From the NCBI RefSeq assembly GCF_048403405.1, contig NZ_CP183129.1: 64,000 nt of DNA, one strand, 5' to 3'. Source of the stretch: Escherichia coli. Its GTDB lineage: Bacteria > Pseudomonadota > Gammaproteobacteria > Enterobacterales > Enterobacteriaceae. Positions 15,714 to 31,373 of this stretch are shown here, one piece after another; position 1 is the first letter of the stretch; every line of letters starts with the position of its first letter. The position numbers were made by a program, and so were the translations under genes. Below the pieces are notes generated by a model. That model was not told the origin of the DNA and did no database searches. It worked only from the letters and a program-made list of their open reading frames with translations.

Positions 15714-15721
15714 AATAAATA

Positions 15722-15747
15722 CCCGGCGGCGTTTTGTCGCCGGGTTT
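15722..15747. terminator. Hairpin between convergent ppsA and fadK
   Basis: CCCGGCGGCG-TTTTGT-CGCCGGG followed by TTTATG; could serve either strand. Confidence 0.55.
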
Positions 15748-15769
15748 ATGTGATCCCCGAAGATGAAAC

Positions 15770-17470
15770 TTATTCAATCTCTTCACAGACATCCTGAGTT
15801 AATCGCCGCATAATATCTTTCCTTAACAAAAACTTTTGTATTTTACCTGAGACAGTGCGCGGTAGTTTTTCGATTACCACGATATGTTCAGGATATTTAT
15901 ATTTCGCGATCCGTTTACGGCTAAAAAAAGCCACCACCTCTTCCAGCGATAATGAATGATGCGGCGCTTTAAGCACGACATAAGCGCATGAGCGTTCACC
16001 TAAACGTTCATCGGGCATCGCAACCACACAGGCATCGTGAATTTTAGGATGCTGCAATAAAATATCTTCTACTTCACGGCTGCTAATATTTTCGCCGCCG
16101 CGGACAATAATATCTTTCTTGCGCCCGGTTATTTTTATATAGCCAGCCTCATCCATGCGGCAGAGATCGCCGCTGTAATACCAGCCTTCTTCATCCAGCG
16201 CACGGGCGGTTAATTCAGGTTCATCAAAATACCCCATAAACACATTGGGGCCACGCGAGGCTTCTTCACCTTCGCAACCTGGCGGTAAGGTCTTGCGTGC
16301 GTCATCGACCACTTTAATCTCAACTCCTGCGACAGCGTAACCATCGGTATGCATAAAGCGCGACAAAGGATCATCGAGATTCACCACTGCGTGCGGCGAA
16401 CTTTCTGTGGAACCATAAACACTTAATAATTTAATGCCGCGCTGCTGGCATTCACGCGCCACTTTTTTGGGGATTGTGGTACCGCCGCAAAGAAAGAAAC
16501 GCAGCGCTGAAAGGTCAGCGGGCTGTTTCTCCAGTAAATTCAAAAGATCATAGACAAACGGCGTTGCGCCGAGCATACAGGTGCAACGCTGCTGCTCAAG
16601 CAGCGCGAGACACGCAGCAGGAGTGAAAATATCTAACAACACGCTGCGAGCACCAATTAAAAATGGTGCCGTTACGCCATGCAGAAAGCCCGTTGCATGA
16701 CCAAGTGGCGCAGGCATCATAAAGACATCCTGCCAGGTCAGATTCAACCGCGCGCAATAAGCCCGCTCACTGGCGAGAATATTGTTATGCGTTAGCATCA
16801 CGCCCTTTGGCAGACCCTCGGTTCCGGAGGTAAACAGCACCGCGGCTAATTCATCGCCGTGGACCGTTATCGCCGTGGTCAGAGGAGTATTGTCGGCGAT
16901 AATCTGACTTAATGAGAGAGCAGAGGTGGCGGGAGCCAGTTTGTCCACGCCGACAATTTGTTGTAGTTGTGGAAGCTGATTTTGCAGCGGCAAGATTAAA
17001 TCTACCGGACGCGTTTGTTTAAACAACGTCGGTGCAAAGAACATTTTTGCCTGACACTTATTGAGCACCCACACCAGTTCTGCTTCTCGCCAGGAAGGCA
17101 ACAGCGGCACGGAAACCGCACCGATTTTCAGGCAGGCAAGATAGATAACGGTAAATTCACACCAGCCAGGCAGTTGAAATGCGATGCGATCGCCTGATTC
17201 AATACCCTTCGCTAACATCCAGTTTGCCAGACAGCTCGCGGCGTGATCGAGCGCGCTATAGGTGTACGATGCACCATGATTATCGACCACGGCAATTTTG
17301 TCTGGCATCGCACGAGCGGTCTGCTGCCAGTAATCGGCCAGCGAAGCATCGCCCCATAGCCCTTGCTGACGATACGCCGCACGACGTTGTTCGTTAAACG
17401 TTAATGTCACTTTCATTTTGGACTCTCGAAACAGAGCATCAGGCCCGAGATGCGGGCCTGTGGGATGCAT
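15770..17470 (-). CDS. fadK: Short-chain acyl-CoA synthetase (anaerobic)
   Basis: 566 aa AMP-binding-family ORF (TSGTEGLPKGV); an alternative start at 17416 (MKVTLTFNEQ) has an upstream GAGAG. Confidence 0.88.
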   Translation of the reverse strand: MHPTGPHLGPDALFRESKMKVTLTFNEQRRAAYRQQGLWGDASLADYWQQTARAMPDKIAVVDNHGASYTYSALDHAASCLANWMLAKGIESGDRIAFQLPGWCEFTVIYLACLKIGAVSVPLLPSWREAELVWVLNKCQAKMFFAPTLFKQTRPVDLILPLQNQLPQLQQIVGVDKLAPATSALSLSQIIADNTPLTTAITVHGDELAAVLFTSGTEGLPKGVMLTHNNILASERAYCARLNLTWQDVFMMPAPLGHATGFLHGVTAPFLIGARSVLLDIFTPAACLALLEQQRCTCMLGATPFVYDLLNLLEKQPADLSALRFFLCGGTTIPKKVARECQQRGIKLLSVYGSTESSPHAVVNLDDPLSRFMHTDGYAVAGVEIKVVDDARKTLPPGCEGEEASRGPNVFMGYFDEPELTARALDEEGWYYSGDLCRMDEAGYIKITGRKKDIIVRGGENISSREVEDILLQHPKIHDACVVAMPDERLGERSCAYVVLKAPHHSLSLEEVVAFFSRKRIAKYKYPEHIVVIEKLPRTVSGKIQKFLLRKDIMRRLTQDVCEEIE

Positions 17471-17472
17471 GA

Positions 17473-17766
17473 TTAGCCGTAGCGAAAATCAATACCGAAG
17501 GTGCCTGCGGGATATTGCCACTGTTCGAGAATAGTGTTACCGCACAGCACCCGACAGGTGCCGCACTCCAGACAACCGGCAGAATCAAAATGAATGTTGC
17601 CGGCATCATCCTGCTTATAAAGTCCGGCAGGGCAGGCTTTCATTAATTTACGGAATTCATTGATATCGGGATTTGCCGCCAAAATGATATGCGGGTGGCC
17701 CTCATCAACATGGAATTTATTGACGCCTAATTTGATGTCGACGTTAACCGTAGCGTTCTGGCTCAT
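17473..17766 (-). CDS. ydiT: FixX-like ferredoxin
   Basis: 97 aa with Cys cluster CPAGLY...CLECGTCRVLC; its start overlaps the ydiS stop (ATGA). Confidence 0.9.
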   Translation of the reverse strand: MSQNATVNVDIKLGVNKFHVDEGHPHIILAANPDINEFRKLMKACPAGLYKQDDAGNIHFDSAGCLECGTCRVLCGNTILEQWQYPAGTFGIDFRYG

Positions 17767-19052
17767 AGCGCGGTTGCTCCCTTAATGCCATCTTTCAGCA
17801 AGTTGATCAGCCCAATTTTCTTCGCGTGTCCCATGATCATTTTGCGTACCGGCTGGTTTGGTTTGCCGTCAATGGTGAACATCTCGTTCATGATGTCGGC
17901 TACCATTCGTGGGTATTGGCTAAACAGGCGCGGGTTTTCCATCAGCGCCGGGATCTTGCGAAAATGCTGCATATCACGCATGACGCAGCTTTGTTCCAGC
18001 TCACGTTTGTATTGCGCAAGACTGCTGGCGGAGAAATCCGCGCGTTCTTTGGCGGCGATCACCGTTGTGGCGGCAGCCTGAGCCGATGCAATGGCTAAAT
18101 CCATGCCGCGGACCGTAAAACCCAAATTCAGGCAGAAGCCTGCGGCGTCACCGACGATCATCACGCCATCGTTAACCAGCTGCGGCACCATTGCCAGACC
18201 GCCCTCCGGCACCATATGCGCGGAGTATTCAAGCAGTTTGCCGCCGCTAATCAGCGGGCGAATGGCGGGGTGTTGTTTAAAATCTTCCAGCATTTGCGGC
18301 ACACTTTTTTGCGCATGGGCGATATCACCCAATCCACAAACCAGCCCCAACGATACGGAATCCTTGTTGGTATAGAGGAATCCGCCACCCATCAGGCCGT
18401 CAGAAGGGGAACCGGCAAACAGCCAGGCGGCACCTTCCTCGCCCGTAATATTAAAGCGATCGTTGATCTGTTCTGGTGTGAGGCCAATAACCTCTTTAAC
18501 ACCAACAGCGTAATGATGCGGATCGGAAGCGGGAACCATTCCCAGCGAGCGGCCAAGCATCGAGTTAACGCCATCAGCCAGAATCACCACATTCGCTTCA
18601 AGAACATCATCCCCGGCCTGAACGCCAGTGACCTTGTTTCCTTCACGAACCAGCGCATCGACACGAACGCCCGGGATAAACTGCGCGCCAGCCTGCTCGG
18701 CTTGTTCCATCAACCACGGGTCCAGACGATTACGCAATACGGTATAAGACGCGTGTTGCGGAACATCTGGTTGCTCGCGGTGAAAGTCGAGGGTAACGGC
18801 GCTTTCTTCGGTTAAGAAGGAGATTTTCTCGCGAGTGACCTTGCGTTCTACCGGCGCTGATGCTGCAAAGCCTGGAATAATCGCTTCAAGTGTGTGGGCA
18901 TAAAGACGCCCGCCGGTCATGTTTTTACATCCGGCACTGTCGCCGCGTTCTATCACCAGGACATCCAGCCCGGCTCGCGCCATGACCAGTGCGGCAACGC
19001 TACCGGCAACGCCCGCACCGACCACAATGGCATCAAATTTGTCATCCGACAT
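17763..19052 (-). CDS. ydiS: FixC-like ETF:quinone oxidoreductase flavoprotein
   Basis: 429 aa with N-terminal FAD-binding GxGxxG (MSDDKFDAIVVGAGVAGSVAA). Confidence 0.9.
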   Translation of the reverse strand: MSDDKFDAIVVGAGVAGSVAALVMARAGLDVLVIERGDSAGCKNMTGGRLYAHTLEAIIPGFAASAPVERKVTREKISFLTEESAVTLDFHREQPDVPQHASYTVLRNRLDPWLMEQAEQAGAQFIPGVRVDALVREGNKVTGVQAGDDVLEANVVILADGVNSMLGRSLGMVPASDPHHYAVGVKEVIGLTPEQINDRFNITGEEGAAWLFAGSPSDGLMGGGFLYTNKDSVSLGLVCGLGDIAHAQKSVPQMLEDFKQHPAIRPLISGGKLLEYSAHMVPEGGLAMVPQLVNDGVMIVGDAAGFCLNLGFTVRGMDLAIASAQAAATTVIAAKERADFSASSLAQYKRELEQSCVMRDMQHFRKIPALMENPRLFSQYPRMVADIMNEMFTIDGKPNQPVRKMIMGHAKKIGLINLLKDGIKGATAL

Positions 19053-19107
19053 GCGTTATGCTCCCTTCCCGCTGCGTTTACAGCGGGAGATGTGGTTGAA
19101 AGGGGAA

Positions 19108-20046
19108 TTAGCGGCTCAACTGGCTAATCAGGGCAGGGACGACTTTGTAGATATCGCCCACCAGACCGTAGTCGGCATAGTTGAAGATTGGCGCATTTTT
19201 ATCTTTATTGATGGCGACAATCACTTTTGCGCCGTTGCCGCCAACCATATGCTGGATCTGCCCGGAAATCCCCAGCGTCAGGTAGAGATCGGATTTCAGC
19301 AACACGCCGGAGACACCGATATAACGTTCACGCTCCATCCAGTTCTCGCCTTCGGCAATTGGACGTGAACAGCCGACTTCAGCATTCAGCACCGCCGCCA
19401 GTTCGTGGACCATTTTCAGGTCATCCTGCGCCGCCAGACCACGACCGACGCCAACCACACGTTTTGCTTTGCTCAGGTCCACGCTGCTTGCGGCTTTCGC
19501 ACGGCGTTCGCGACAGAGAATTTCATGACGCGGAGCAACATAAGGTACCGTTTCTGTCGGGCACTGATGAGCGGTATCACTGGTGCACGGTTCCTGAACA
19601 CCGGGTGCAAGGGTAATGATCGCCAGCGGGCTGTTGATCTTTTCCTGTGCGAACGCTAACCCGCCATACATCCGGTGTTCGGCGCAAATGTGACCATCGA
19701 CAATATCCACCGCAGTGGCATCGTTCACCAGCGCCGCATTCAGTTGCACACTTAACCGTGCTGCCAGAGCTTTACCACGTTTCGTCGCGGCCAGCAGCAA
19801 CATAGAAGGGTGTTTATCTTTCAGCAGGGCAGCAATGCTTTCGGCGTAATTTTCAGTACGTTGCAGCGCATCATTTTGCTCAAGAACATAAATACATTTT
19901 GGACCATAAGGCATAACTGCCTGCGCCTGGTCGGTATTTTGTACAATGGCATACACCTGTTGGCCCCATTGCTGCGCGCCGCCAAACAGTTCAGCATAAC
20001 GTTCAGGATTATCGCTAAAGACCCAGACGCTGTTTAATTGACTCAT
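19108..20046 (-). CDS. ydiR: Electron transfer flavoprotein alpha subunit (FixB-like)
   Basis: 312 aa, ETF-alpha family; downstream of ydiQ in the same operon. Confidence 0.9.
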   Translation of the reverse strand: MSQLNSVWVFSDNPERYAELFGGAQQWGQQVYAIVQNTDQAQAVMPYGPKCIYVLEQNDALQRTENYAESIAALLKDKHPSMLLLAATKRGKALAARLSVQLNAALVNDATAVDIVDGHICAEHRMYGGLAFAQEKINSPLAIITLAPGVQEPCTSDTAHQCPTETVPYVAPRHEILCRERRAKAASSVDLSKAKRVVGVGRGLAAQDDLKMVHELAAVLNAEVGCSRPIAEGENWMERERYIGVSGVLLKSDLYLTLGISGQIQHMVGGNGAKVIVAINKDKNAPIFNYADYGLVGDIYKVVPALISQLSR

Positions 20047-20065
20047 CGTTTCTTCTCCGTAGGCT

Positions 20066-20830
20066 TCAGTTCAGGGCTTTCTTCAGATGTTCCGCCAGCT
20101 CGGCAATGGCCTCCGGCGAATCGTTATCGAGAATGATGTGCTTACGTTCTGTTTGCGGCGGTACGCGAATGCCGGTCAGTTCAGCAAGCGGCGCGCTCTG
20201 GCTCCAGCCAATGTCACTTGCCTGCCACTGATTTACCGGTTTTTTACCCGCGCCGAGAATGGCTTTCATCGAAGGAATGCGTGGCATGTTAATATCGGAG
20301 GTGACGCAGAGCACGGCTGGAACAGAGAGCTCAATAACTTCAACATCATCTTCAAGCGTGCGTTCAATCACCAGTGTATTGCCCTGACGCTGAATAGCAC
20401 TCACTGCATTAATCACCGGAAGTTGCAGAATTTCTCCGACCAGCAAGCCAACCTGCTGGGCATAAAGGTCGCCGGAACCTTCACCAAAGATCAGTAAATC
20501 GAAGCCGATTTTTTCAACTGCTGCCGCCAGCGCCTTTGCGGTATCGAGAGGCAGTGCATGTTCAAGTTGCGCATCCTGCACCAAATACAGGCTATGCGGC
20601 CCGCGGGATAGCACGTCTTTACGCACTTTCGAGTTCTGCAACAATGAGCCGCCAATGGTCAGCGCGGCTATCTCATCGTCATCTGTTGCAATCTGGCTTG
20701 CAGCTTCAATGGCATTGAGATCGAACTGGCTGATTTTGGCGTCGGCATTGTCGAAATTCAGGGTATATTCTGGAGTGACAACAATGTCCTGTTCTTCAGG
20801 CACCAGCTTAAAGCAGGTTATTATTTTCAT
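20066..20830 (-). CDS. ydiQ: Electron transfer flavoprotein beta subunit (FixA-like)
   Basis: 254 aa from the internal ATG (MKIITCFKLVPEEQD) with AGGAGA 7 nt upstream; the 287-aa track ORF is an N-terminal over-extension. Confidence 0.9.
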   Translation of the reverse strand: MKIITCFKLVPEEQDIVVTPEYTLNFDNADAKISQFDLNAIEAASQIATDDDEIAALTIGGSLLQNSKVRKDVLSRGPHSLYLVQDAQLEHALPLDTAKALAAAVEKIGFDLLIFGEGSGDLYAQQVGLLVGEILQLPVINAVSAIQRQGNTLVIERTLEDDVEVIELSVPAVLCVTSDINMPRIPSMKAILGAGKKPVNQWQASDIGWSQSAPLAELTGIRVPPQTERKHIILDNDSPEAIAELAEHLKKALN

Positions 20831-21145
20831 GATTTCTCCTGTGAGTCGCATACGGAACCATCTCCGATGGAAGGTAAAAATGGCCTGAAAATAGTGTGCG
20901 ATAGCAGGGCGGGGTTTTCGACGGAGCAAGCTGTTTTCCTTGCCAACAATCTTGCAAAAAAAATGCGATCGCTAAAACAAAAGTGCAATTTGCGGCAATA
21001 TAGTTATTCCATGACCGTACAATCTTGCATTCAGTGTAAATAATCTTGTTTAGCTCTCGCTAAACGCGGTTGTATAACCGCAATACACGCCGTATTTTAT
21101 CCGGCATATATTGTTTTTGCTTGCTCATGGAATAGGGAGGTTGTC

Positions 21146-22057
21146 ATGTATCAACGCTGTTTTGATAACGCCAGCGAAACGCTGTTTGTTGCCGGTAAAA
21201 CGCCACGGCTTTCACGTTTTGCATTTAGCGATGATCCAAAATGGGAGTCCGGACATCACGTTCATGACAATGAAACCGAGTTGATTTACGTCAAGAAAGG
21301 GGTAGCAAGGTTTACCATCGATTCTTCGTTATATGTCGCGCACGCCGATGACATTGTGGTGATAGAACGTGGCAGGCTGCATGCGGTGGCCTCTGACGTT
21401 AACGATCCGGCAACGACGTGTACCTGTGCGCTGTACGGCTTTCAGTTTCAGGGGGCTGAGGAAAATCAGCTACTGCAACCGCATTCTTGCCCGGTAATTG
21501 CCGCAGGGCCGGGAAAAGAAGTCATTAAAACCTTATTTAATGAGCTAAGTGTGATTTTGCCGCAAAGTAAAAATAGCCAAACATCTTCGTTATGGGACGC
21601 CTTTGCCTATACGTTAGCAATTCTTTACTATGAAAACTTTAAAAATGCTTATCGTTCGGAGCAGGGATATATTAAAAAAGATGTTCTGATAAAAGATATT
21701 CTTTTCTATCTGAATAATAACTATCGCGAAAAAATCACTTTAGAGCAGTTATCGAAAAAGTTTCGTGCCAGCGTCAGTTATATTTGCCATGAATTTACCA
21801 AAGAGTATCGTATTTCCCCTATTAACTATGTTATTCAACGGCGTATGACGGAAGCGAAATGGTCACTCACTAATACTGAATTATCACAGGCAGAGATCTC
21901 CTGGCGTGTGGGTTATGAAAATGTCGATCACTTTGCCAAACTGTTTTTGCGCCATGTCGGCTGTTCGCCCAGCGATTACCGCAGGCAATTTAAAAACTGT
22001 TTTGCGGAACAAGAAATCTTATCTGAATTTCCTCAACCGGTAAGTCTTGCCGGATAA
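21146..22057 (+). CDS. ydiP: AraC-family transcriptional regulator
   Basis: 303 aa; C-terminal AraC-type HTH region; divergent from ydiQ. Confidence 0.88.
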   Translation: MYQRCFDNASETLFVAGKTPRLSRFAFSDDPKWESGHHVHDNETELIYVKKGVARFTIDSSLYVAHADDIVVIERGRLHAVASDVNDPATTCTCALYGFQFQGAEENQLLQPHSCPVIAAGPGKEVIKTLFNELSVILPQSKNSQTSSLWDAFAYTLAILYYENFKNAYRSEQGYIKKDVLIKDILFYLNNNYREKITLEQLSKKFRASVSYICHEFTKEYRISPINYVIQRRMTEAKWSLTNTELSQAEISWRVGYENVDHFAKLFLRHVGCSPSDYRRQFKNCFAEQEILSEFPQPVSLAG

Positions 22058-22099
22058 ATCTGGCGGCGCAGTTTGTTAAGAAGCTGCGCCGCCTGCAGA

Positions 22100-23251
22100 T
22101 TATTTGTTCTGATAATCTTTCAGGATCTGCCGACCCGCTACGTAAATCATAATTTCGTCTGTACCGCCGCCGATACGTTCACAACGGACATCACGCCAGA
22201 AGCGAGAGACGCGCGCCTCATCGGTATAGCCCAGACCGCCCATGATTTGAATCGCATCATCAATAACTTCCATTGCGGTACGTGCGCAGTACAGTTTTGC
22301 CAGCGCCGCGCTGGTGCGCAGTGACTGATGCTGATCGGCTTGCCATGCCACTTTCAACACCATGTTGCGCATGTTGTCGATCTTAATCGCCATCAGCGCC
22401 AGTTTTTCCTGGATCATCTGGTTATGACCAATGGGCTTACCAAAAGCGATACGTTGGTTGGCATAGCGGGCGGCATCTTCAAAGGCACACTCGGCAAAGC
22501 CGGTGCTGCGCGCGGCGTTGATCAGGCGCTCCATCTCAAAGTTGTACATCACATTGAGGAAACCCATTCCTTCTTCGCCCACCATGTCGCTCTCTTCAAC
22601 TTCCACGTTGTCGAGATAGACTTCGCAGGTGCTGAGCATATGCCAGCCGATTTTATGCAGCGGGTTAATCTTAATGCCGGGCTTACTGGAGTCGACCCAC
22701 CACAGGGTGAAGGCTTTTTTGGGATCTTTCGGTTCTGGATCGCGCGCCAGCACCAGCATATACGGGTACTCTTTCGCGCCGGTAATAAAGGTTTTCTGGC
22801 CGTTGATGTAAACCTTGCCGTTTTTACGCGTGTAAGTGGTGGTGGCGCTGTTGTTATCTGAGCCTGCGCCTGGTTCCGTCAATGCCAGGGCATAGGCGGG
22901 ATCACCCGTTTCCAGGGTGCTCTCTGCCGTTTTACGTAGCTGCTCTGCAGAACCGAAACGGCGCATACTGTGAATACATTGACCGTTGGTGATCAAAAAT
23001 GCCGGGGCACCGCATTTTGACACTTCCATCAGCGCCAGCATTTGGGTGACGTAATCCGCAGGGATACCACCAAATTCTTCCGGCACGCCAAGCATGGAAA
23101 TACCGTTATCCGCCAGTGCCCGCATAAATTCACGCGGGTATGTCCCGTTTTGATCGCAGGTGCGGAAATACTCTTCCGGAAAGTTAGTCGTAATCAGTTC
23201 GCGAATACTGGCCAGCAGCAGTTCTTGTTCTTCAGTTAAAGAAAAATCCAT
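22100..23251 (-). CDS. ydiO: Acyl-CoA dehydrogenase family protein
   Basis: 383 aa from the internal ATG (MDFSLTEEQELL) with AGGAG upstream; acyl-CoA dehydrogenase family. Confidence 0.9.
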   Translation of the reverse strand: MDFSLTEEQELLLASIRELITTNFPEEYFRTCDQNGTYPREFMRALADNGISMLGVPEEFGGIPADYVTQMLALMEVSKCGAPAFLITNGQCIHSMRRFGSAEQLRKTAESTLETGDPAYALALTEPGAGSDNNSATTTYTRKNGKVYINGQKTFITGAKEYPYMLVLARDPEPKDPKKAFTLWWVDSSKPGIKINPLHKIGWHMLSTCEVYLDNVEVEESDMVGEEGMGFLNVMYNFEMERLINAARSTGFAECAFEDAARYANQRIAFGKPIGHNQMIQEKLALMAIKIDNMRNMVLKVAWQADQHQSLRTSAALAKLYCARTAMEVIDDAIQIMGGLGYTDEARVSRFWRDVRCERIGGGTDEIMIYVAGRQILKDYQNK

Positions 23252-23264
23252 CGTGATACTCCTG

Positions 23265-24860
23265 TTAATGAGCCGCTTCAGGCAGGACAAAACCCATCGC
23301 CGCATCGATAAATAATCTTTCGTCCATCAGTTTGAGTTCTGGCGAAATCGCTGGGGTGAAATCCATTTTGTCGAGAATATCTTTTTGTAAATCGACGCCA
23401 GGGGCGATTTCGATTAAATGCAGGCCGTCTTCTTTCAGCGTGAATACTGCGCGCTCAGTGATATAACGAACATCCAGCCCTCGCTCGAGAGCGATTTTTC
23501 CGCTGAAAGTAATTTCCGGTAGTTCCCGAATAAATTTCTTCACCCATCCTTCCTGGACGATATTTAATTTGCCGTCGGTAATTTCTGTTTTTAAACTGCC
23601 CGCAGTTAATGTGCCGCAGAAAACGATTTTCTTCGAAGTGGCACTGATATCAATAAATCCACCGGTGCCCATGATTTTACCATTGAATTTATGCACGCCG
23701 ACGTTACCGTGCTGGTCGACTTCAGCAAAACTCAAATAACAAACATCCAGACCGCCACCGTGATAAAAATCAAACTGGGACGTCATATCCAGAATGGCAC
23801 GGGTATTCACGTTCGCGCCAAAGGCGATCCCCTGTGAAGTAATTCCGCCAATCGGACCTGTTTCTACCGTCAGAATAAAGTCATCAGCACAACCTTCTTC
23901 TCGGGCGACCAGGCCAATGCCGTCAGCAATACCGACGCCGACATTCCCCACCGCGCCTTTACGCATTTCGAATAATGCGCGCCGTGCAACTAATTTACGT
24001 TGGTTTAGGGGCAGGCTAAGTTTGGTGCTGTCATCAAGGGTGAAGTCACCAGAAATAAAGCGGTTAACCGGCGCACCGCCATACAGTTGGGTTTGATCCG
24101 GATCGACCACCACAATATCCACCAGATAACCCGGAATACGGACAGATTTAGGATGCAGCGTGGCTTTCTTAACCATTTTCTGCACCTGCATCATCACAAT
24201 ACCGCCGTTATTGTGCACCGCCTGGGCAATAACCAATGCGTCGAGATACATCACCTCATCTTCAAAAGTGGCGTAGCCTTCGCTGTCGCAGGTGGTAGCG
24301 CGAATGAAGGCGATATCTGGCGCAATCGCTTTGTAATAGAGATATTCTTGGTTATCAAACTCGACCAGTTTAATCAGGTCTTCTTTAGTGACTTCATTCA
24401 GTTTGCCGCCTTGCTGGCGTGGATCAACAAATGTCCCGATGCCAATATCACTAATAATACCAGGCTGGTGGGCTGCGGCGGCGCGTAAGGTTTGTGTAAG
24501 TACACCTTGTGGATAGTTATAAGCAATAATTTTATTTTGTTCTGCGAGATCAGAAATACGCGGCGATTGTCCCCAGTGACCGCATAATGCCCATTTCACC
24601 AGACCTTCTTGTGCCAGCGGACTAATACCACGGTCGGCGCGATCGCCAAGCCCTGTTGGACTAATAATCGATAAATTACGTGGTGTTTGAGTCTGTTTAT
24701 ATTTATCAGCAAGAGCAGTAATTAACGTGGTGGCTTCCAGAATACCGCCGCCAGCGCCTAACACACAAAGTGTTGCTTCGTCGGGAATATAATTCACCGC
24801 TTCCTGTGCCGACAGGACCGGCACTCGTCCATTAATACGAGGTGGTTTTACAGGTTTCAT
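23265..24860 (-). CDS. ydiF: Acyl-CoA:acetate CoA-transferase (fused alpha/beta subunits)
   Basis: 531 aa, MKPVKPPRINGRVPVLSAQEAVNYIPDEATLCVLGAGGG. Confidence 0.9.
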   Translation of the reverse strand: MKPVKPPRINGRVPVLSAQEAVNYIPDEATLCVLGAGGGILEATTLITALADKYKQTQTPRNLSIISPTGLGDRADRGISPLAQEGLVKWALCGHWGQSPRISDLAEQNKIIAYNYPQGVLTQTLRAAAAHQPGIISDIGIGTFVDPRQQGGKLNEVTKEDLIKLVEFDNQEYLYYKAIAPDIAFIRATTCDSEGYATFEDEVMYLDALVIAQAVHNNGGIVMMQVQKMVKKATLHPKSVRIPGYLVDIVVVDPDQTQLYGGAPVNRFISGDFTLDDSTKLSLPLNQRKLVARRALFEMRKGAVGNVGVGIADGIGLVAREEGCADDFILTVETGPIGGITSQGIAFGANVNTRAILDMTSQFDFYHGGGLDVCYLSFAEVDQHGNVGVHKFNGKIMGTGGFIDISATSKKIVFCGTLTAGSLKTEITDGKLNIVQEGWVKKFIRELPEITFSGKIALERGLDVRYITERAVFTLKEDGLHLIEIAPGVDLQKDILDKMDFTPAISPELKLMDERLFIDAAMGFVLPEAAH

Positions 24861-25004
24861 TGTTAATTCCTGATTCAGATGTGATTTTCCCTACGCCAGA
24901 TGGAGAATTAGCGCACAGAGACTCACGAAATATTTTTATTAAATACGGTTAAATATATTTTTTTAGTTCGGCGGGGGAGGATGTTCCCGCCGAAATATTA
25001 TTGC

Positions 25005-25763
25005 TTATGCCTGATGTAAAATAGTTAATACTGTGCGCAAATCATTTACCGAGATTTGCCCTGGTGCAGAGGCCTTTTTTACCGCACCAAAAGTTGCCGC
25101 CGAGCCAAATACTTCACCAGCCAGACGAGAAATTACGCCAGTTTTTGCCATTGACATCGTGATGATTGGACGATCGGCATACTGCTCCTGCATCTCCAGG
25201 GTCGCGGCAAGCAACGTCAGCACATCGCTGGTACTTTGCGGCATCAGCGCAATCTTAGGAATATCGGCGTCGAAGGACTGCATTTTGCGCAGACGGGCAA
25301 TGATTTCTTCGGCTTCCGGCGTTTTATGGAAGTCATGGTTGGACATGACAACTTTCACATCATGCGCGTGGGCGTAGGCGACGGTTTCTTTAACCTGATC
25401 ATCGCCGGTAAATAACTCCAGATCGATCATATCAACCAGGCCGCTGTCGATGGCTGCACGATTGAGTGCAATATAAGCCTCGGTGGAAATCGCCTGCTCG
25501 CCGCCTTCTTTGGCACTGCGGAAGGTAAACAGCAGCGGTTTTTCTGGCATGGTTTCACGGAGAATTTTTGCCGCCGCCATGACAGAATCCACATTGGAGA
25601 GGTCGGCATAGTGGTCAACACGCCATTCCAGAATATCAAAGTCCGCTTCACGATAGGCGAGAGCTTCAGATTTCACGCTGGCGATATCTTTCGCCATCAG
25701 CGAGACGATGATTTTAGGTGCGCCCGTACCAATGACGAGATCTTTTACAGTTACGGTTTTCAT
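25005..25763 (-). CDS. aroD: 3-dehydroquinate dehydratase, type I
   Basis: 252 aa, [52 protein letters not shown]. Confidence 0.95.
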
Positions 25764-25793
25764 TTTTTACCCTTTCTGCACGCGGTCAGCCTG

Positions 25794-26660
25794 TCAGGCA
25801 CCGAACCCCATGACCTGTTTAACATATTCCAGAGGGAAATCTTTGCCAGTCCATAACGTGAACTGTTCAGCCCCTTGCCACAACAACATGCCGTATCCAT
25901 CAATCGTTTTGCAACCAGCTTGTTGCGCCTGCTGCAATAACTTCGTCATATGCGGGTTATACACGCATTCAGTGACCAGAAGTCCCGGATGTAACAGACT
26001 GATATCATTAACCAATGATTCATTCTCAAGGGGTTTCATACCCACTTTTGTGCCATTGGTTAAAATGTCGGCGGAAGCCAGGGCTTCAGCAAAGGCTTGC
26101 TGATCGGCGAGATCGGTAACCGTGACGACACAATCGGTGTTTTCGTTAACCCGCTGCGCGAAGGCGAGGGCTTTATCGAAGAACTCATCCCGACGGTTAA
26201 AGAGTTTAATTTCTTTTAAACCTTCAATTGCCCCCTGCGCGCCAATCGCCGTTGAGGCACCTCCGGCCCCTAACAGCACCATCGTTTTGCCTTTGATATC
26301 AAAACCGCTCTCTTTAATGGCGCGAATATGGCCCGTGCCGTCGGTGTTATAGCCACGCAGATAGCCATCATCATTAACGATGGTGTTGATGGCACCCACC
26401 AGTTTGGCCGCTGGCGTTAATTCATCAACATATTCACACGCCAGTTGTTTGTTCGGCATTGATACACCAGTTCCGCGCATTTTGAGGGCTTTTAATCCTT
26501 CAATTGCTCCGGGAAAACTATCGTTATCCACTTCAAAAGCCATATAGGTAAATGGCAATCCCGCTTTTTCTAAGGCTTTATTCTGCATTTCAGGCGATAA
26601 ACTGTGGCGGATGGGATATGCCATCAGCCCAATCAATTCGTATTTTGCGGTAACATCCAT
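25794..26660 (-). CDS. ydiB: Quinate/shikimate dehydrogenase
   Basis: 288 aa, [35 protein letters not shown]; AroE paralogue family. Confidence 0.93.
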
Positions 26661-26671
26661 AATTAACTCCT

Positions 26672-27937
26672 TTAACCTCTATGCTTAATTGTGTTTAACC
26701 GGGTGCTAAATTTACGCTCGCCAAACCGCACATCATTTTCAGGAATAATGAAAACGCGGTAATAGCGGATAAAGACAATAATTGCGGTAATCAGGGCCAG
26801 CAGCGCGAAAGTAAAATCGAGAGCAATGATATATTGCAGGCCGATGTTCGACAGATAACCGGTAATCAGCGGAATAACAAAATTAGCCAGTCCACCCATC
26901 ATCATATATATACTGGTGACTTTGGCTTTGCTTTTTGGGAAAAACTCTGACATGACCGAAACGCCGAGCTGTAAAATGCCGCCAGCTGCTGAGAAACCGA
27001 TAACAAAGGCTCCGGCATTACACACCAATGGAGAAGGGTACAGGTAGATAATGGCAGCTGTTATTGTTGCCAGTGCAGAGTTAAATACATTAGCCCAGAT
27101 GGGCCGGACCATTTTTTTCAGCAGTGCGGCAAAAATAAAGACACAGACCAACGAGCCCATACTGTAATAAGAGATGGTTTTTAATGCCTCAGCTTCTGAC
27201 ATACCAGCAAAAGCCATCGCATATTTGGGCATCCACACCACAATCACATAAAAGGTCGAGAATGCGGCTACACCGAACAGTACTGATGAAACACCTTCCA
27301 GCCAGACTAACGGTTTGCTGTTCATTTGCGGTAATTCATTAGCTACGCTGGCGTCCACCAACTGGCTGGGGAATTTGCTTTTCAACAGCATCAGTGTGAT
27401 CAGTACAAACAGAATACCCGGAATAATCAGCCCATAGCCGTACCAGATGTTATTGAGCAACATATAGCTCACCAGCATTGGGTAGAACATTTGCCCGAAT
27501 GACACCATCGCTTTAACCAGTATGACCGCCGAACCAGAGGCTTTCGGAAAGCATTCCATGAGCGCGGGGTAGCCACCCGTATCCAGCGCTGAGTTAGCGA
27601 TACCTACGCACACTGCCAGACAGTAGGCGAGAGTTAAATTCGGGCAAGCGGGAATACCAAAGAAGAATAGCAGATACATTATTACTGCCATTAATATCAC
27701 CGCCCGACGACCAAACTTATCGGAGATCACACCGAAGAATAAAATACTGATCAATCGCCCCAAACCGATACCGGAAATTAAATAGGCAATGCCCGCGTTG
27801 TCAGTGGAAAACTTTTCTGCCAGAGATGACATATTTTGGGCAAGCGTAATAACACTAATGCCGTGCAGGAAATAGCTGAAGTAAATACAAAGAACAGCCA
27901 GGATAAATGGCGTGCTGAAAGCCTTATTTTGAGACAT
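26672..27937 (-). CDS. ydiN: MFS transporter
   Basis: 421 aa from the ATG at 27937 ([11 protein letters not shown]), with AGGAG 8 nt upstream; the track ORF begins two codons earlier at a GTG. Confidence 0.88.
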
Positions 27938-28163
27938 TTTCACAGCTCCTTGCTGAAAGATAATTTCGTTACCGTACGTATTGTTCTCCGACGGTTCACA
28001 TAATTACTATACTGAAGATGATTTTCCCTGGGTACATGGCATAAAGTTTATGTTTCCAGGAATATTGCATGTCATAGTTTGTTTTTTATCGCGATTTTCG
28101 TTAGTTGGCGCAGAAAGAGTTATTTATCCGTAAGATCTTGCATGACCTGAAAAGAATATTGCA

Positions 28164-29378
28164 TTACCCACCCGGAGCGACATTTTCCTTTAGCGAGTGA
28201 TGCCGCGTTTCTTTGCGGCTGCGTAAGCCGATAAACAGTGCCAGTAAAAAGCCGATGGCAGCGATGGCGGTATCGAACCACATAATATCGGCAATACTTC
28301 TTTGGGACAGATGAGCCGTAATCAACGGAATAGTAAAGGTCGCAATACTGCCCGCACTGTAATAGATCCCTGTAGCTTTACCTTTAGCGTAGGGGAAACG
28401 TTCAGCCATTAATGTCAGGCCAATTTGCACAACACCTCCAGCAGAGGTAAAACCAATGACAAAAGCAAATATTATCACCACATAAAATGTGGGATGCAGG
28501 CAGACGGTAAACAGAGCAGTAAATGAGATAAAGGTGTACAGCATGAGTAATGTTGTTGCTCGAACGGTATTACGAATGAGTGGAGCGGTAATAAATACAC
28601 AAAGCAGCGAACCCACGGTGTAGATACTGAGTAGTTTGATCGACATAGTGTATGACATGCCTGCAACAAATTGTCCGTACTGTGCCAGCCACTGGCTAAC
28701 CAGATAAAACGTTGCCATTGAGATATAGCCATATAAGGTATAACTGGCTAAATCGATTATTGAGCAGCGATGTTCCGTAGAGCTGGTGGTTTTCTTTATG
28801 ACAGGTAAGCGACGACCCGGATGGGGTGGGAACGTACAACGGTATAAAAACAGAGCGTTAATAAACATAATGCCTGCGGCAATCATAAAGGACCAACCGA
28901 ACCACAGTTCAGCCCACACTAACAGGCTAATGATTAGCGGTAATAAAAATTGCCCGCTGGAAACAAATGCTTTAATTAAAATATTGGCTGTACCCGGTGA
29001 GCGTGGAAAAGCTTCCATCAAACTGGGATAGGTGCCTGCATCGAGAAAACTGTTTGCCATTCCCGCCAGAAAGCCAAAAACATAAGCGATAATGATGTTA
29101 TTGGTGTGCAGGATGCCAAAAAAGAAGGCCATATAGCAACACATCCCGAGCATGATAAAAGGGCGGCGACCAAAGCGATCGGATAATAATCCTGCAAAAA
29201 GCAAGACACTTAATCGACCAATACCCAGCGATGAGATAACTATTGAGACGCCTGCGGCATTAGTCTGCCAAAGCGTCTCCAGCGAGGCCATATTCAGGCT
29301 CATCAAAATGACGCCCATACCATGCACCAGGTAATTAAAATACAACCCCAGTGCGGTAGGGAAATAGGGATTTTTCAT
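28164..29378 (-). CDS. ydiM: MFS transporter
   Basis: 404 aa polytopic membrane protein, MKNPYFPTALGLYFNYLVHGMGVILMSLNM. Confidence 0.88.
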   Translation of the reverse strand: MKNPYFPTALGLYFNYLVHGMGVILMSLNMASLETLWQTNAAGVSIVISSLGIGRLSVLLFAGLLSDRFGRRPFIMLGMCCYMAFFFGILHTNNIIIAYVFGFLAGMANSFLDAGTYPSLMEAFPRSPGTANILIKAFVSSGQFLLPLIISLLVWAELWFGWSFMIAAGIMFINALFLYRCTFPPHPGRRLPVIKKTTSSTEHRCSIIDLASYTLYGYISMATFYLVSQWLAQYGQFVAGMSYTMSIKLLSIYTVGSLLCVFITAPLIRNTVRATTLLMLYTFISFTALFTVCLHPTFYVVIIFAFVIGFTSAGGVVQIGLTLMAERFPYAKGKATGIYYSAGSIATFTIPLITAHLSQRSIADIMWFDTAIAAIGFLLALFIGLRSRKETRHHSLKENVAPGG

Positions 29379-29476
29379 AGGTTCTACTTAGCAAAGGTGC
29401 TTTAAAAAGTGAAGCGATGTTGTGTCAGCATCCGTTCATTATTGTTGTAACAACGACAATTCCTTTCTTTGGAAAA

Positions 29477-29832
29477 TTAACAAAGGCGCTCCAGATCGTG
29501 TGCATATAATTCAGCGGCTACCGATTGATAGATCTTCCAGTCAATAAAATTGCCATCAGGGTAGACTTGTTGAAACGCGGTTAAGTCGGGGAAAAAACGC
29601 ATGGTGTTGTTGCCGATGCGGTTATTTATTTTCTCTATGATGGCATGAAGATGTTTTTTCTTTGCTGACGCATAGCCAACAGTTGCTCGACTACACGATC
29701 AGGAATGGCGTATTTGCCATTTTCCCACTGACGCCAGCTTTCACTGTCACCGGTCTGGGCAATCCAGGTCGCGCATTCATCAATAGTCATGGCAAAAATA
29801 TGGCGGAGTGCCTGGAGTTCATAAGCGTTCAT
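29477..29832 (-). pseudogene. ydiL: ydiL (DUF1870-family protein), apparently frameshifted in this sequence
   Basis: Translation from the ATG at 29832 (MNAYELQALRHIFAMTIDEC...) hits a stop after 74 codons; restoring one base in the T6 run at 29653..29658 gives an uninterrupted 118-aa ORF ending at 29477, the length I recall for K-12 YdiL. Confidence 0.65.
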
Positions 29833-29971
29833 CGTGTAATGGCTGCATGAAATAAACAATAAAATATAAATAACATTATCAGCCTGCTGACGGCTTGAAG
29901 AGAGTCACAGTATCTTGTGCAACATTATTGGAAAGCGTGAGGGGCGAGGTAGCGAAGCGGAAAAATGTTAA

Positions 29972-30075
29972 AAAAAAGCCCATCGTGGGAGATGGGCAAA
30001 GACTACACACAGCAATTCGTTGTTTCACTCAGGGGATTTCCATGCTTATAAATCAATATGTTGATTTATAACCGT
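29972..30075 (-). ncRNA. rprA: RprA small regulatory RNA (rpoS translational activator)
   Basis: The minus strand reads ACGGTTATAAATCAACATATTGATTTATAAGCATGGAAATCCCCTGAGTGAAACAACGAATTGCTGTGTGTAGTCTTTGCCCATCTCCCACGATGGGCTTTTTTT, matching the RprA sequence I recall, with an intrinsic terminator at its 3' end. Confidence 0.85.
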
Positions 30076-30260
30076 GAGCTAATAGTAGGCATACGGACTT
30101 TTTGCGTCGATCAGATTCGTCTCATTAGTTTAAAAACTGTAAAGAATTTGCGACAGGTACTACCAGCTGAATGGCGGTAAGCAGGAAAATATGGGGAAGA
30201 GCAAGCAAATATCAATTAGCAGGGGTTAACAATCAGGCGGCAGAGCCGCCTGATGAGAAA

Positions 30261-31373
30261 TTACTTATTCGGTTTCTCGATTTCGCCAAGTTCTTCGAGA
30301 ACTTCTTCCGGTTGGTCAGTCGGCGGTGGGACTTCTTCCACCCACGCGGCAAAAAGACGCCAGGAAACGGCTAACAGAACCGGACCAATAAACAGGCCGA
30401 TCATCCCGAAAGCAATCAAACCACCAATAACGCCAGAGAGAATCAGGATCAGCGGTAAATCGGCACCCATGCGAATTAACATTGGGCGGATGACGTTATC
30501 CAGCGTGCCAACCACACCGCTCCACACTAACAATACCGTTCCCCAGGTGGTATCGCCAGTCCAGTAGAGCCAGATAATCGCCGGAATCAGTACCGGCAAC
30601 GGTCCAAGCTGGACAAGGCAGGAGAGGATCATTAACACCGTGAGCAAAGTTGCATAAGGTACGCCGGATACGGCGAGGCCGATACCGCCAAGCACTGCCT
30701 GTACTAACGCTGTCACCACAACACCCAGCGCCACCGCGCGGATAGCTTGTGCCGCCAGCAGCACGGCGGCATCTCCACGAACGCCTGCCAGACGGGTTGC
30801 AAAATGGCGAATGCCTTGCGCCACTTGTTCACCGCGCCAGTACAGCAGGGCGCTGAAGAGAAGCATCAGCGCACAATGCACCATAAAGCGCCCGATATGC
30901 GCCGCCTGCCCAACGAACCAGGTGGTGGTGGTGCCAATATAAGGACGGACTTTTGCCATGATCGCCGTCCCCCCCATATCCAGCAAGTTGTGCCAGCCTG
31001 CATACAGCTTCGCGCCAATCACCGGAATGGTATTAAGCCACGCCAGATCGGGTAACGTCATGTCACCGCTGGAAATGGCTTTAATTAGCGGGCCGCTGCC
31101 GTCGACGATACTGTTAACCAGCAAGGCAATAGGGATGATAAACACCATCACTAATAACAGCGTCATCACCAGAACGGCGAGAGACCGGCGACCAAACATG
31201 ATCTTTTGCAAACGTAACAATACCGGCCAGGTGGCGATAACCACCGTACCAGCCCATGCAAAGCCGAGAATAAAGGGTTGTACAATCCACAGACATGCCA
31301 CAATCATGATGGCTAAAAAGAGCACCGAAAGCAGAATTTGTGCGACATTCCTGGGCTGACGAACATTTACCAT
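30261..31373 (-). CDS. ydiK: AI-2E/PerM-family inner membrane transporter
   Basis: 370 aa polytopic membrane protein beginning MVNVRQPRNVAQILLSVLFLAIMIVACLWIVQPF. Confidence 0.88.
   Translation of the reverse strand: MVNVRQPRNVAQILLSVLFLAIMIVACLWIVQPFILGFAWAGTVVIATWPVLLRLQKIMFGRRSLAVLVMTLLLVMVFIIPIALLVNSIVDGSGPLIKAISSGDMTLPDLAWLNTIPVIGAKLYAGWHNLLDMGGTAIMAKVRPYIGTTTTWFVGQAAHIGRFMVHCALMLLFSALLYWRGEQVAQGIRHFATRLAGVRGDAAVLLAAQAIRAVALGVVVTALVQAVLGGIGLAVSGVPYATLLTVLMILSCLVQLGPLPVLIPAIIWLYWTGDTTWGTVLLVWSGVVGTLDNVIRPMLIRMGADLPLILILSGVIGGLIAFGMIGLFIGPVLLAVSWRLFAAWVEEVPPPTDQPEEVLEELGEIEKPNK

Follow-up and report, generated by a model that had tools for sequence, protein, structure and literature searches.

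Escherichia coli carries the genes aroD, ydiB, ydiN and ydiM side by side, and the question raised by this block is what a dehydroquinase, a quinate/shikimate dehydrogenase and two transporters of the major facilitator superfamily (MFS) do together. We analysed the block in a 64,000-nt stretch of E. coli DNA (contig NZ_CP183129.1; hereafter the window). From comparison of sequences our answer is tentative, and we rate it a little below an even chance: the four genes could be the substrate-handling half of a ~14-kb, 13-gene unit, reaching from ydiL to fadK, for the anaerobic use of plant hydroaromatic acids.

Identity and genomic linkage of the four genes

The open reading frames (ORFs), the annotation and the family models agree that aroD, ydiB, ydiN and ydiM form a co-directional block at 25005-29378 on the minus strand, as the first-pass annotation had described it, and all four ORFs are intact in the window. 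Of 5,426 complete E. coli genomes, 5,425 carry the region 24000-30500. It matches E. coli chromosomes save for one place in ydiL (29654-29659), not part of the block, where the lengths differ by 1 nt. AroD matched PF01487 (DHquinase_I) with 260 bits and, over its full length, TIGR01093 with 292 bits (cut-off 139), and its accession in the matching E. coli annotation is that of the standard E. coli AroD. YdiB reached 670 bits with the equivalog model NF009390 (cut-off 349) and 646 bits with PDB 1NPD/1O9B across residues 1-288. YdiN and YdiM are paralogues (36% identity, E-value 1e-84), and their sole family match was the MFS_1 profile, with 114 and 120 bits, respectively (cut-off 33.4); no NCBIfam family reached its cut-off, and with the aromatic-acid symporter model TIGR00895 (2A0115), whose cut-off is 418, the scores were 43 and 38 bits. 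The two transporters have no close solved relative, the family profile giving just weak matches to MdfA and NorA among solved structures. TCDB places them in the aromatic acid:H+ symporter family TC 2.A.1.15 (PMC10588857). For ydiN, the mechanical ORF reaches a GTG at 27943, but it is the ATG at 27937 that follows, at a distance of 8 nt, a Shine-Dalgarno sequence (AAGGAG).

Among 79 loci across bacteria with a YdiM/YdiN relative, a YdiB-like dehydrogenase lay within 10 kb in 69 and a dehydroquinase in 64. Every Enterobacterales locus has its ydiN orthologue beside ydiB and aroD, as do Sutterella and Burkholderiales. Of the hydroaromatic catabolic or salvage module that had been suggested for the block, this linkage bears out a unit for uptake and interconversion; catabolism as a carbon source gains no support, no dehydroshikimate dehydratase having been found in the annotation of the matching region of strain 746 or among the genes scanned. 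YdiM and YdiN probably carry hydroaromatic carboxylates, and their substrates, which the same annotation called unassigned, are still so in the published work consulted, including PMC10588857.

The idea of hydroaromatic uptake and interconversion is itself not new, having been published from transcriptomics, from gene context with mutants, and from phylogenomics. Johansson and Lidén (2006; cited after PMC4585142 and PMC8788726) found that ydiN, ydiB and aroD went up together in a carbon-limited shikimate-accumulating strain, and proposed that YdiN was either a shikimate importer or a by-product exporter. Hu et al. (2009) predicted from gene context that YdiL, YdiM and YdiN act with aro genes (PMC2672614). 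A 2023 study in PLoS One showed that 75-86% of YdiM/YdiN relatives adjoin shikimate-pathway genes (PMC10588857). Deletion of ydiN made the shikimate titre 1.3-fold higher (PMC8788726), and ydiN is now routinely deleted along with shiA in shikimate production strains. Our literature search, which covered few subscription journals and is weak evidence for that reason, found no prior link of ydiO or ydiF to shikimate and nothing pertinent on shikimoyl-CoA, dihydroshikimate or the reduction of quinate.

A promoter element shared by ydiN and ydiQ

The four-gene boundary drawn at first proved too narrow: by the evidence below, the block belongs together with ydiL on its upstream side and with ydiF-ydiO-ydiP-ydiQRST-fadK on its downstream side. 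A 24-nt element, TGCAAnATnnnTGGnAAnnnAAAC (searched as TGCAANATNNNTGGNAANNNAAAC), occurs in two exact copies in the window, one upstream of ydiN and one upstream of ydiQ. When 45 related loci (905 kb) were searched with up to two mismatches, 74 of the 75 matches lay upstream of ydiN or ydiQ on the strand of the gene, Sutterella included; the remaining match lay upstream of ydiM in Prodigiosinella, and none fell outside the cluster promoters. The core TGCAAnA[TA] was present in three copies in the ydiM-ydiN spacer of most of the 15 genomes having this spacer, and in one to four copies in the ydiP-ydiQ spacer of 17/17 genomes, where ~0.06 per spacer would be expected by chance. From the restriction of the element to these promoters we conclude that one dedicated regulator serves both the ydiN and the ydiQ operon, whose co-regulation is very probable.

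Scanning for consensus promoters and terminators told us little, since the 7 promoter-like sites were fewer than the 10.6 expected and none lay upstream of ydiN; phylogenetic footprinting was used in its place. Across Escherichia, Citrobacter, Kosakonia and Intestinirhabdus, the footprint of the ydiM-ydiN spacer consisted of TGCAAnAT boxes and a ~37-nt element ~20 nt upstream of a conserved -10 box. This box, TATAGT, is located at 28006-28011, and the ydiN copy of the 24-nt element ends ~35 nt upstream of it. A looser search with the 10-mer ATGCAATATT was at chance level, with 66 matches against 87 expected, and was replaced by the 24-nt pattern.

By-eye comparison with the consensus sequences of CRP, FNR, TyrR, FadR, ArcA and Fur revealed no fit to the shared element. 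YdiP is a candidate regulator, given that the boxes repeat directly at a spacing of 21 nt and that AraC-type genes accompany the related clusters at loci L005 and L007; we suppose that YdiP may bind the element. In the 1.4-kb ydiQ-ydiN gap of Sutterella no regulator gene was found, and there was no ORF longer than 77 aa. A further copy with three mismatches, TGCAACATTATTGGAAAGCGTGAG, lies at 29918-29941 on the plus strand, between the rprA terminator and ydiL and on the strand opposite to ydiL; chance matches are expected at this level.

Transcription of the block

The intergenic gaps are 226 nt (ydiM-ydiN), 11 nt (ydiN-ydiB), 30 nt (ydiB-aroD) and 144 nt (aroD-ydiF), and the two short ones are compatible with a ydiN-ydiB-aroD operon. 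In aerobic glucose M9, however, the mean RNA-seq values were 365 for aroD, 12 for ydiB and 3 for ydiN (supplement of PMC8464067), aroD thus standing ~30-100 times above the other two. This difference indicates that aroD has a strong promoter of its own and retains its biosynthetic role, and that ydiN and ydiB are nearly silent absent an inducing condition. The earlier grouping of aroD with the module needs to be qualified, in that aroD is also expressed alone.

The GC-rich hairpin directly past the aroD stop is followed on the transcribed strand by an A-run, not a U-run, which makes read-through into ydiF possible; the hairpin is a weak terminator or a stabiliser of the mRNA 3' end. A search of 15000-31000 against Rfam found no RNA element besides RprA.

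Linkage to the downstream acyl-coenzyme A genes

Downstream of aroD, the window encodes a coenzyme A (CoA)-transferase, an acyl-CoA-dehydrogenase-type reductase, the alpha and beta subunits of an electron-transfer flavoprotein (ETF), a FixCX-like pair and a ligase, all intact. For YdiO, the runner-up model was the crotonobetainyl-CoA reductase CaiA (452 bits), its nearest characterised family. With NCBIfam models, YdiQ, YdiR, YdiS and YdiT scored as paralogues of FixA, FixB, FixC and FixX, and the second-best family of FadK was cyclohexanecarboxylate-CoA ligase.

About 40 Enterobacterales loci share the order ydiL-(aroL-like)-ydiM-(LysR)-ydiN-ydiB-aroD-ydiF-ydiO-ydiP-ydiQRST. Beyond this conserved order, the same genes are found linked in rearranged form. 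Orthologues of ydiF with 70-83% identity lie in one operon with a YdiN-like transporter gene at L003, L005, L007 and L091, and in every neighbourhood examined of a ydiO orthologue with at least 77% identity, a dehydroquinase was linked, usually together with a YdiB-like dehydrogenase and a YdiN-like transporter. At L091 the genes form a single run, YdiN-like(46%)-YdiF(70%)-YdiO(77%)-YdiQ-YdiR-AroD(64%)-YdiS-YdiT-FadK(49%), with gaps of -4 to 117 nt, in which aroD begins 2 nt past the ETF alpha gene. The operon on the metagenomic contig L005 reads MFS-YdiF-YdiO-ETFb-ETFa-YdiB(77%), with gaps of 13-28 nt, and that of L007, from a Saezia-like member of the Burkholderiales (DnaB 91% identical), has the same gene set plus AroD. 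In the betaproteobacterium Sutterella wadsworthensis the whole set is present at 63-83% identity, rearranged into divergent operons. A Sporolactobacillus locus links ETF, YdiS/T (59-60%), acyl-CoA dehydrogenases and FadK (53%) to YdiB, AroD and two transporters of the family.

More distant YdiO paralogues (62-68% identity) in Desulfovibrio desulfuricans (L088) and Escherichia albertii (L090) lie in analogous modules without shikimate genes, and the accompanying genes thus appear to define the substrate. In both modules the YdiO paralogue is accompanied by another acyl-CoA dehydrogenase, ETF, an MFS transporter and a CoA-transferase of family III, and L088 also has FixCX and a ligase; they look like further acid-reduction systems of the same kind. 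Two other loci carry an ApbA-family reductase and a MaoC-type dehydratase beside a YdiF-like CoA-transferase, namely L007 (19618-21127, Saezia-like) and L065 (13821-16938, Megasphaera paucivorans), which hints at more CoA-ester chemistry (dehydration) after the first reduction. In Enterobacter sp. EA-1 (L087) the cluster looks degraded, with a YdiN match over 1.8 kb and ydiB, ydiF and ydiQ labelled as fragments.

Replacement of the reductase in other phyla

In Firmicutes, the place of the reductase next to the transporter, dehydrogenase and dehydroquinase genes is taken by two other, unrelated types of C=C reductase. A LysR gene in divergent orientation is followed, in Clostridium, Paenibacillus, Megasphaera, Sporolactobacillus, Fonticella and Carnobacterium, by genes for an Fe-S flavoenzyme (670-690 aa, FadH/BaiCD/enoate-reductase family) and for YdiB-like, YdiM-like and AroD-like proteins. 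The Firmicute transporters, whose genes stand between the YdiB-like and the AroD-like one, are closer to YdiM (45-58% identity) than to YdiN. Turicibacter and Cellulosilyticum have the flavoenzyme and the transporter, and no YdiB-like or AroD-like gene was labelled there. In Lactobacillaceae and a Streptococcus, a reductase with FMN_bind and FAD_binding_2 domains lies in the cluster or within ~5 kb of it, in several cases directly past AroD. These two domains make up the enzyme class of urocanate, hydroxycinnamate and reported shikimate reductases. Ligilactobacillus pobuzihii encodes an 825-aa fusion of FMN_bind, FAD_binding_2 and type I dehydroquinase (L060 5259-7736, minus strand), and Streptococcus sp. 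DD13 a 969-aa protein joining Old Yellow Enzyme, FMN_bind and FAD_binding_2 directly past AroD (L069 11948-14857). One of the three reductase systems was found within 10 kb in 63/79 loci and under 27 of the 31 genus-level labels. The presence of three unrelated C=C reductases beside the same trio, together with the fusion, points to the ring double bond, in shikimate or dehydroshikimate, as the bond that is reduced.

Such a reaction has been described in gut bacteria. According to a preprint, Sutterella wadsworthensis grows better with shikimate as electron acceptor and makes hydroshikimate, shikimate reduction is an anaerobic electron sink in Eggerthella and Sutterella, and shikimate occurs in faeces (bioRxiv 10.1101/2022.12.26.521950).

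Proposed pathway

For E. coli we infer the substrates, the direction of transport, the CoA chemistry, the reductive direction and the regulator of the following pathway. Quinate or shikimate would be imported by YdiN, YdiM or both. YdiB would oxidise quinate to 3-dehydroquinate, AroD would dehydrate this to 3-dehydroshikimate, and YdiB would reduce the latter to shikimate, so that quinate would be turned, without net redox cost, into a ring bearing an alpha,beta-unsaturated carboxylate. The acid would then be loaded onto CoA by YdiF, the first CoA ester coming from FadK, and YdiO would reduce the ring double bond with electrons delivered via YdiQR and YdiST. Finally, YdiF would hand the CoA to the next substrate molecule and free the reduced acid (dihydroshikimate or a further product), which the second transporter might export. 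Imported shikimate may also enter aromatic biosynthesis by salvage, and aroD would serve biosynthesis too, from its own promoter. The pathway would explain why a dual-substrate, NAD-using dehydrogenase and a dehydroquinase accompany the transporters, why two transporters recur, one perhaps serving uptake and the other the export of the product, and why the cluster resembles the cai/fix system. Whether ring C=C reduction is its end point in E. coli we regard as nearly balanced, leaning slightly to the negative.

A number of observations weigh against this pathway. The linkage within Enterobacterales could be inherited synteny, and an acyl-CoA dehydrogenase working with ETF could also act oxidatively. 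The ydiF-ydiO pair is without a copy of the promoter element, and the hairpin parts it from aroD. Some clusters contain no reductase (Bacillus pumilus group, Gilliamella and L006) and have transporters, a dehydrogenase and sometimes a shikimate kinase, which fits salvage. The by-products that have been described for shikimate-producing E. coli are quinate, dehydroshikimate and gallate, though from aerobic cultures. [quoted passage not shown] As to the candidate regulator, a separate study assigns YdiP to cold shock, and published chromatin immunoprecipitation-exonuclease data for YdiP in aerobic glucose list five weak sites, none of them at the ydi locus. Several unrelated regulators have two of the five, the cspA/yiaG region and yihQ, among their listed sites as well, and we count these data neither for nor against YdiP as the regulator.

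Alternative explanations

Plain salvage is the strong rival to ring reduction, and the two may coexist; as the only function of the block we consider it rather unlikely. YdiN and/or YdiM would import quinate, dehydroquinate, dehydroshikimate or shikimate, YdiB and AroD would convert them to shikimate, and AroK/AroL would lead on to chorismate, sparing phosphoenolpyruvate (PEP) and erythrose-4-phosphate, with ydiF-fadK being unrelated fatty-acid genes. The reported beta-oxidation role of the latter agrees with this, as do the reductase-free clusters. So does a shikimate kinase gene (AroL model 224 bits, cut-off 161) that Brenneria, Serratia, Symbiopectobacterium and Prodigiosinella carry in the interval from ydiL to ydiM, and a shikimate kinase gene also adjoins the transporters in Orbaceae and L006. 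The commonest neighbours of YdiM/YdiN genes were ranked ydiB, then aroD, then aroK (PMC10588857), and deletions of ydiN and ydiB were reported as aromatic auxotrophs (PMC2672614), for which a polar effect on aroD is suspected. However, salvage leaves unexplained the element common to the ydiN and ydiQ promoters, the embedding of AroD or YdiB in acyl-CoA reductase operons, and the recurrent adjacency or fusion of unrelated C=C reductases.

Overflow or export is improbable. YdiN, and perhaps YdiM, would expel intermediates or by-products of the shikimate pathway, with YdiB and AroD running in reverse to make quinate. An exporter of aromatic by-products is what Johansson and Lidén proposed YdiN to be, and by-product quinate was attributed to YdiB (both as given in PMC4585142); deletion of ydiM raised isoprenol susceptibility, and YdiM is listed as a putative exporter (PMC10588857). 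The higher shikimate titre after ydiN deletion was, however, read by its authors as lost re-uptake (PMC8788726). The partner enzymes in the Firmicute clusters are all without signal sequences, and one is fused to cytosolic AroD, so that their substrate must be imported. Moreover, LysR- or AraC-controlled clusters with reductases resemble substrate-induced utilisation units.

We give an equally low likelihood to the view that YdiM is a copper importer for the assembly of cytochrome bo3 oxidase, its adjacency to shikimate genes being incidental or indirect. In a strain without both bd oxidases, ydiM deletion abolished bo3 activity and slowed 64Cu uptake, and the authors cite methionine motifs in transmembrane helices 1 and 3 of YdiM (PMC10588857). 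The same study, however, reports the 75-86% adjacency to shikimate genes given above, and we found the family linked to YdiB and AroD across phyla. The motif residues are not kept in an alignment with the Brenneria YdiM orthologue, in which Ile stands in place of M26, Tyr of M76 and Leu of M83, and the phenotype could be indirect, via chorismate-derived quinones or siderophores.

Classical catabolism of quinate or shikimate as a carbon source via protocatechuate, as in qui, qsu and qut, shares with the block the first three functions of those clusters (dehydrogenase, dehydroquinase and transporter), and a Telmatospirillum YdiN relative (52% identity) does lie in a quinate cluster with a QuiC-like dehydroshikimate dehydratase, but that cluster has a type II dehydroquinase whereas AroD is type I, and the reading is very improbable because no dehydroshikimate dehydratase is linked here (no gene for it or for the protocatechuate pathway is annotated in the matching region of strain 746, and there was no such dehydratase among the genes scanned).

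ydiL and other features of the locus

In the window, ydiL has a 1-nt deletion in a homopolymer (T6 at 29654-29659, T7 in other strains), and the protein ends after 65 of 118 residues. An exact match to the stretch with the deletion was found in 0/5,426 complete E. coli genomes, the best match being 99.2% with the gap as the difference; the frameshift is a mutation private to this genome or else an error in sequencing the homopolymer. YdiL belongs to the Aca2/YdiL family, helix-turn-helix regulators familiar from anti-CRISPR operons. ydiL is syntenic with the transporter genes in Enterobacterales and in bee-gut Orbaceae (e.g. L002 3422-3778 and L074 7304-7663), often with an aroL-like kinase gene after it, and YdiL may be a second regulator of the module.

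A divergent LysR-family gene lies between ydiM and ydiN in Yersinia, Serratia, Brenneria, Dickeya, Symbiopectobacterium and Prodigiosinella (L028-L030, L033-L037, L039 and L056), and an aroL-like shikimate kinase gene lies past ydiL in Serratia, Brenneria, Symbiopectobacterium and Prodigiosinella, though not in Yersinia or Dickeya. Escherichia, Citrobacter and Kosakonia have neither the LysR gene nor the kinase gene, yet retain the promoter element.

In E. coli SCU-109 (L093 6731-7711), IS5 is inserted between rprA and ydiK; the window is without this insertion. [quoted passage not shown] The coordinates of the features are collected in Table 1.

Table 1. Genes, promoter boxes and RNA hairpin of the ydiL-fadK region, in positions of the window.
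Feature	Position	Strand	Basis and remarks
ydiL, small helix-turn-helix protein, Aca2/YdiL family	29477-29832	minus	Pfam match
ydiM, MFS transporter, ydiN paralogue	28164-29378	minus	404 aa; MFS_1
Two more conserved TGCAAnAT boxes, 21 nt apart, directly past the ydiM stop	28135-28163	minus	Phylogenetic footprint
Element copy TGCAATATTCCTGGAAACATAAAC, operator-like, upstream of ydiN	28046-28069	minus	Exact match; kept across genera
ydiN, MFS transporter of the YdiM/YdiN family, candidate hydroaromatic importer	26672-27937	minus	421 aa; MFS_1
ydiB, NAD(P)-dependent quinate/shikimate dehydrogenase	25794-26660	minus	288 aa; NF009390, PDB 1NPD/1O9B
aroD, type I 3-dehydroquinate dehydratase	25005-25763	minus	252 aa; DHquinase_I, TIGR01093, annotation; 3'-most of the ydiN-ydiB-aroD run
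GC-rich hairpin directly past the aroD stop	24967-24994	minus	RNA fold -18.2 kcal/mol, z-score -2.9
ydiF, family I CoA-transferase, alpha and beta parts fused	23265-24860	minus	Annotation; PDB 2AHU match
ydiO, acyl-CoA dehydrogenase-family enzyme	22100-23251	minus	NF008997, 787 bits
ydiP, AraC-family regulator with cupin domain, divergent from ydiQ	21146-22057	plus	Annotation; candidate binder of the element
Further conserved box ACAAGATT-N12-TGCAAGAT near ydiP	21022-21049		
Element copy TGCAAGATTGTTGGCAAGGAAAAC, upstream of ydiQ	20933-20956	minus	Exact match
ydiQ and ydiR (ETF beta, alpha), ydiS and ydiT (FixC/FixX-like), fadK (AMP-forming acyl-CoA ligase)	15770-20830	minus	Annotation, NCBIfam

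Implications

Uptake and interconversion of hydroaromatic acids, a known idea, is chiefly relevant to shikimate bioproduction. If the extended pathway is true, some ten E. coli genes whose function is poorly understood (ydiL, M, N, B, F, O, P, Q, R, S and T) would gain a physiological role, and there would be a reason why E. coli retains, besides AroE, the NAD-linked YdiB with its two substrates. Quinate and shikimate, both plentiful in fruit, coffee and vegetables, would join the electron sinks of enteric bacteria in the gut, and one pathway would have three interchangeable reductase solutions across phyla.

A wider proposal, possible though doubtful to our mind, is that the whole of ydiL-fadK could be one hydroaromatic regulon, in which the ring double bond of dietary quinate or shikimate would be reduced via shikimoyl-CoA or dehydroshikimoyl-CoA. 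It would cover E. coli, other Enterobacterales, Sutterella and some Burkholderiales. If so, ydiF, ydiO, ydiQRST and fadK would not be primarily genes of fatty-acid beta-oxidation, and in Firmicutes two unrelated reductases would serve the same pathway. In old observations, lactobacilli are said to reduce quinate, and gut microbes reportedly convert quinate or shikimate to alicyclic acids and benzoate, ending as hippurate; the regulon, if true, could supply a genetic basis for both.

Comparison with known systems

The closest parallel in E. coli is caiTABCDE-fixABCX, the anaerobic carnitine/crotonobetaine electron sink. The two share a dedicated transporter, a CoA-transferase, a priming ligase, an enoyl-CoA reductase of the acyl-CoA dehydrogenase family and electron input of the FixABCX type. 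They differ in that YdiF is a family I CoA-transferase whereas CaiB belongs to family III, in that the ydi transporters are MFS proteins and that of cai is of the BCCT family, and in the accessory enzymes, which are YdiB and AroD on one side and the dehydratase CaiD on the other. CarABCDE of Acetobacterium woodii serves caffeate respiration, in which the double bond of an unsaturated plant acid is reduced as electron acceptor. That system likewise joins ETF and a reductase of the acyl-CoA dehydrogenase type to a priming ligase and a CoA-transferase loop, but belongs to another organism and substrate class and is not known to involve a transporter, dehydrogenase or dehydratase front end.

The qui (Acinetobacter), qsu (Corynebacterium) and qut (Aspergillus) clusters are quinate/shikimate catabolic clusters. 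They resemble the E. coli block in having a quinate/shikimate dehydrogenase, a dehydroquinase, an MFS permease and a dedicated regulator, but go on to dehydroshikimate dehydratase and protocatechuate cleavage, neither of which was seen at the block. ShiA, the shikimate/dehydroshikimate importer of E. coli (PMC8788726), is also an MFS protein, for the compound class that YdiN and YdiM probably carry, co-deleted with ydiN in production strains, but is of another MFS subfamily and unlinked to shikimate enzymes. With the flavin shikimate reductase activity reported in the preprint on Eggerthella lenta and Sutterella (bioRxiv 10.1101/2022.12.26.521950), the proposed pathway would share the enoate reduction and the support of anaerobic growth, and the FMN_bind and FAD_binding_2 enzymes next to YdiM-YdiB-AroD in lactobacilli are of the same enzyme class; the E. 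coli cluster, in contrast, is without such a reductase and would take a CoA-dependent route.

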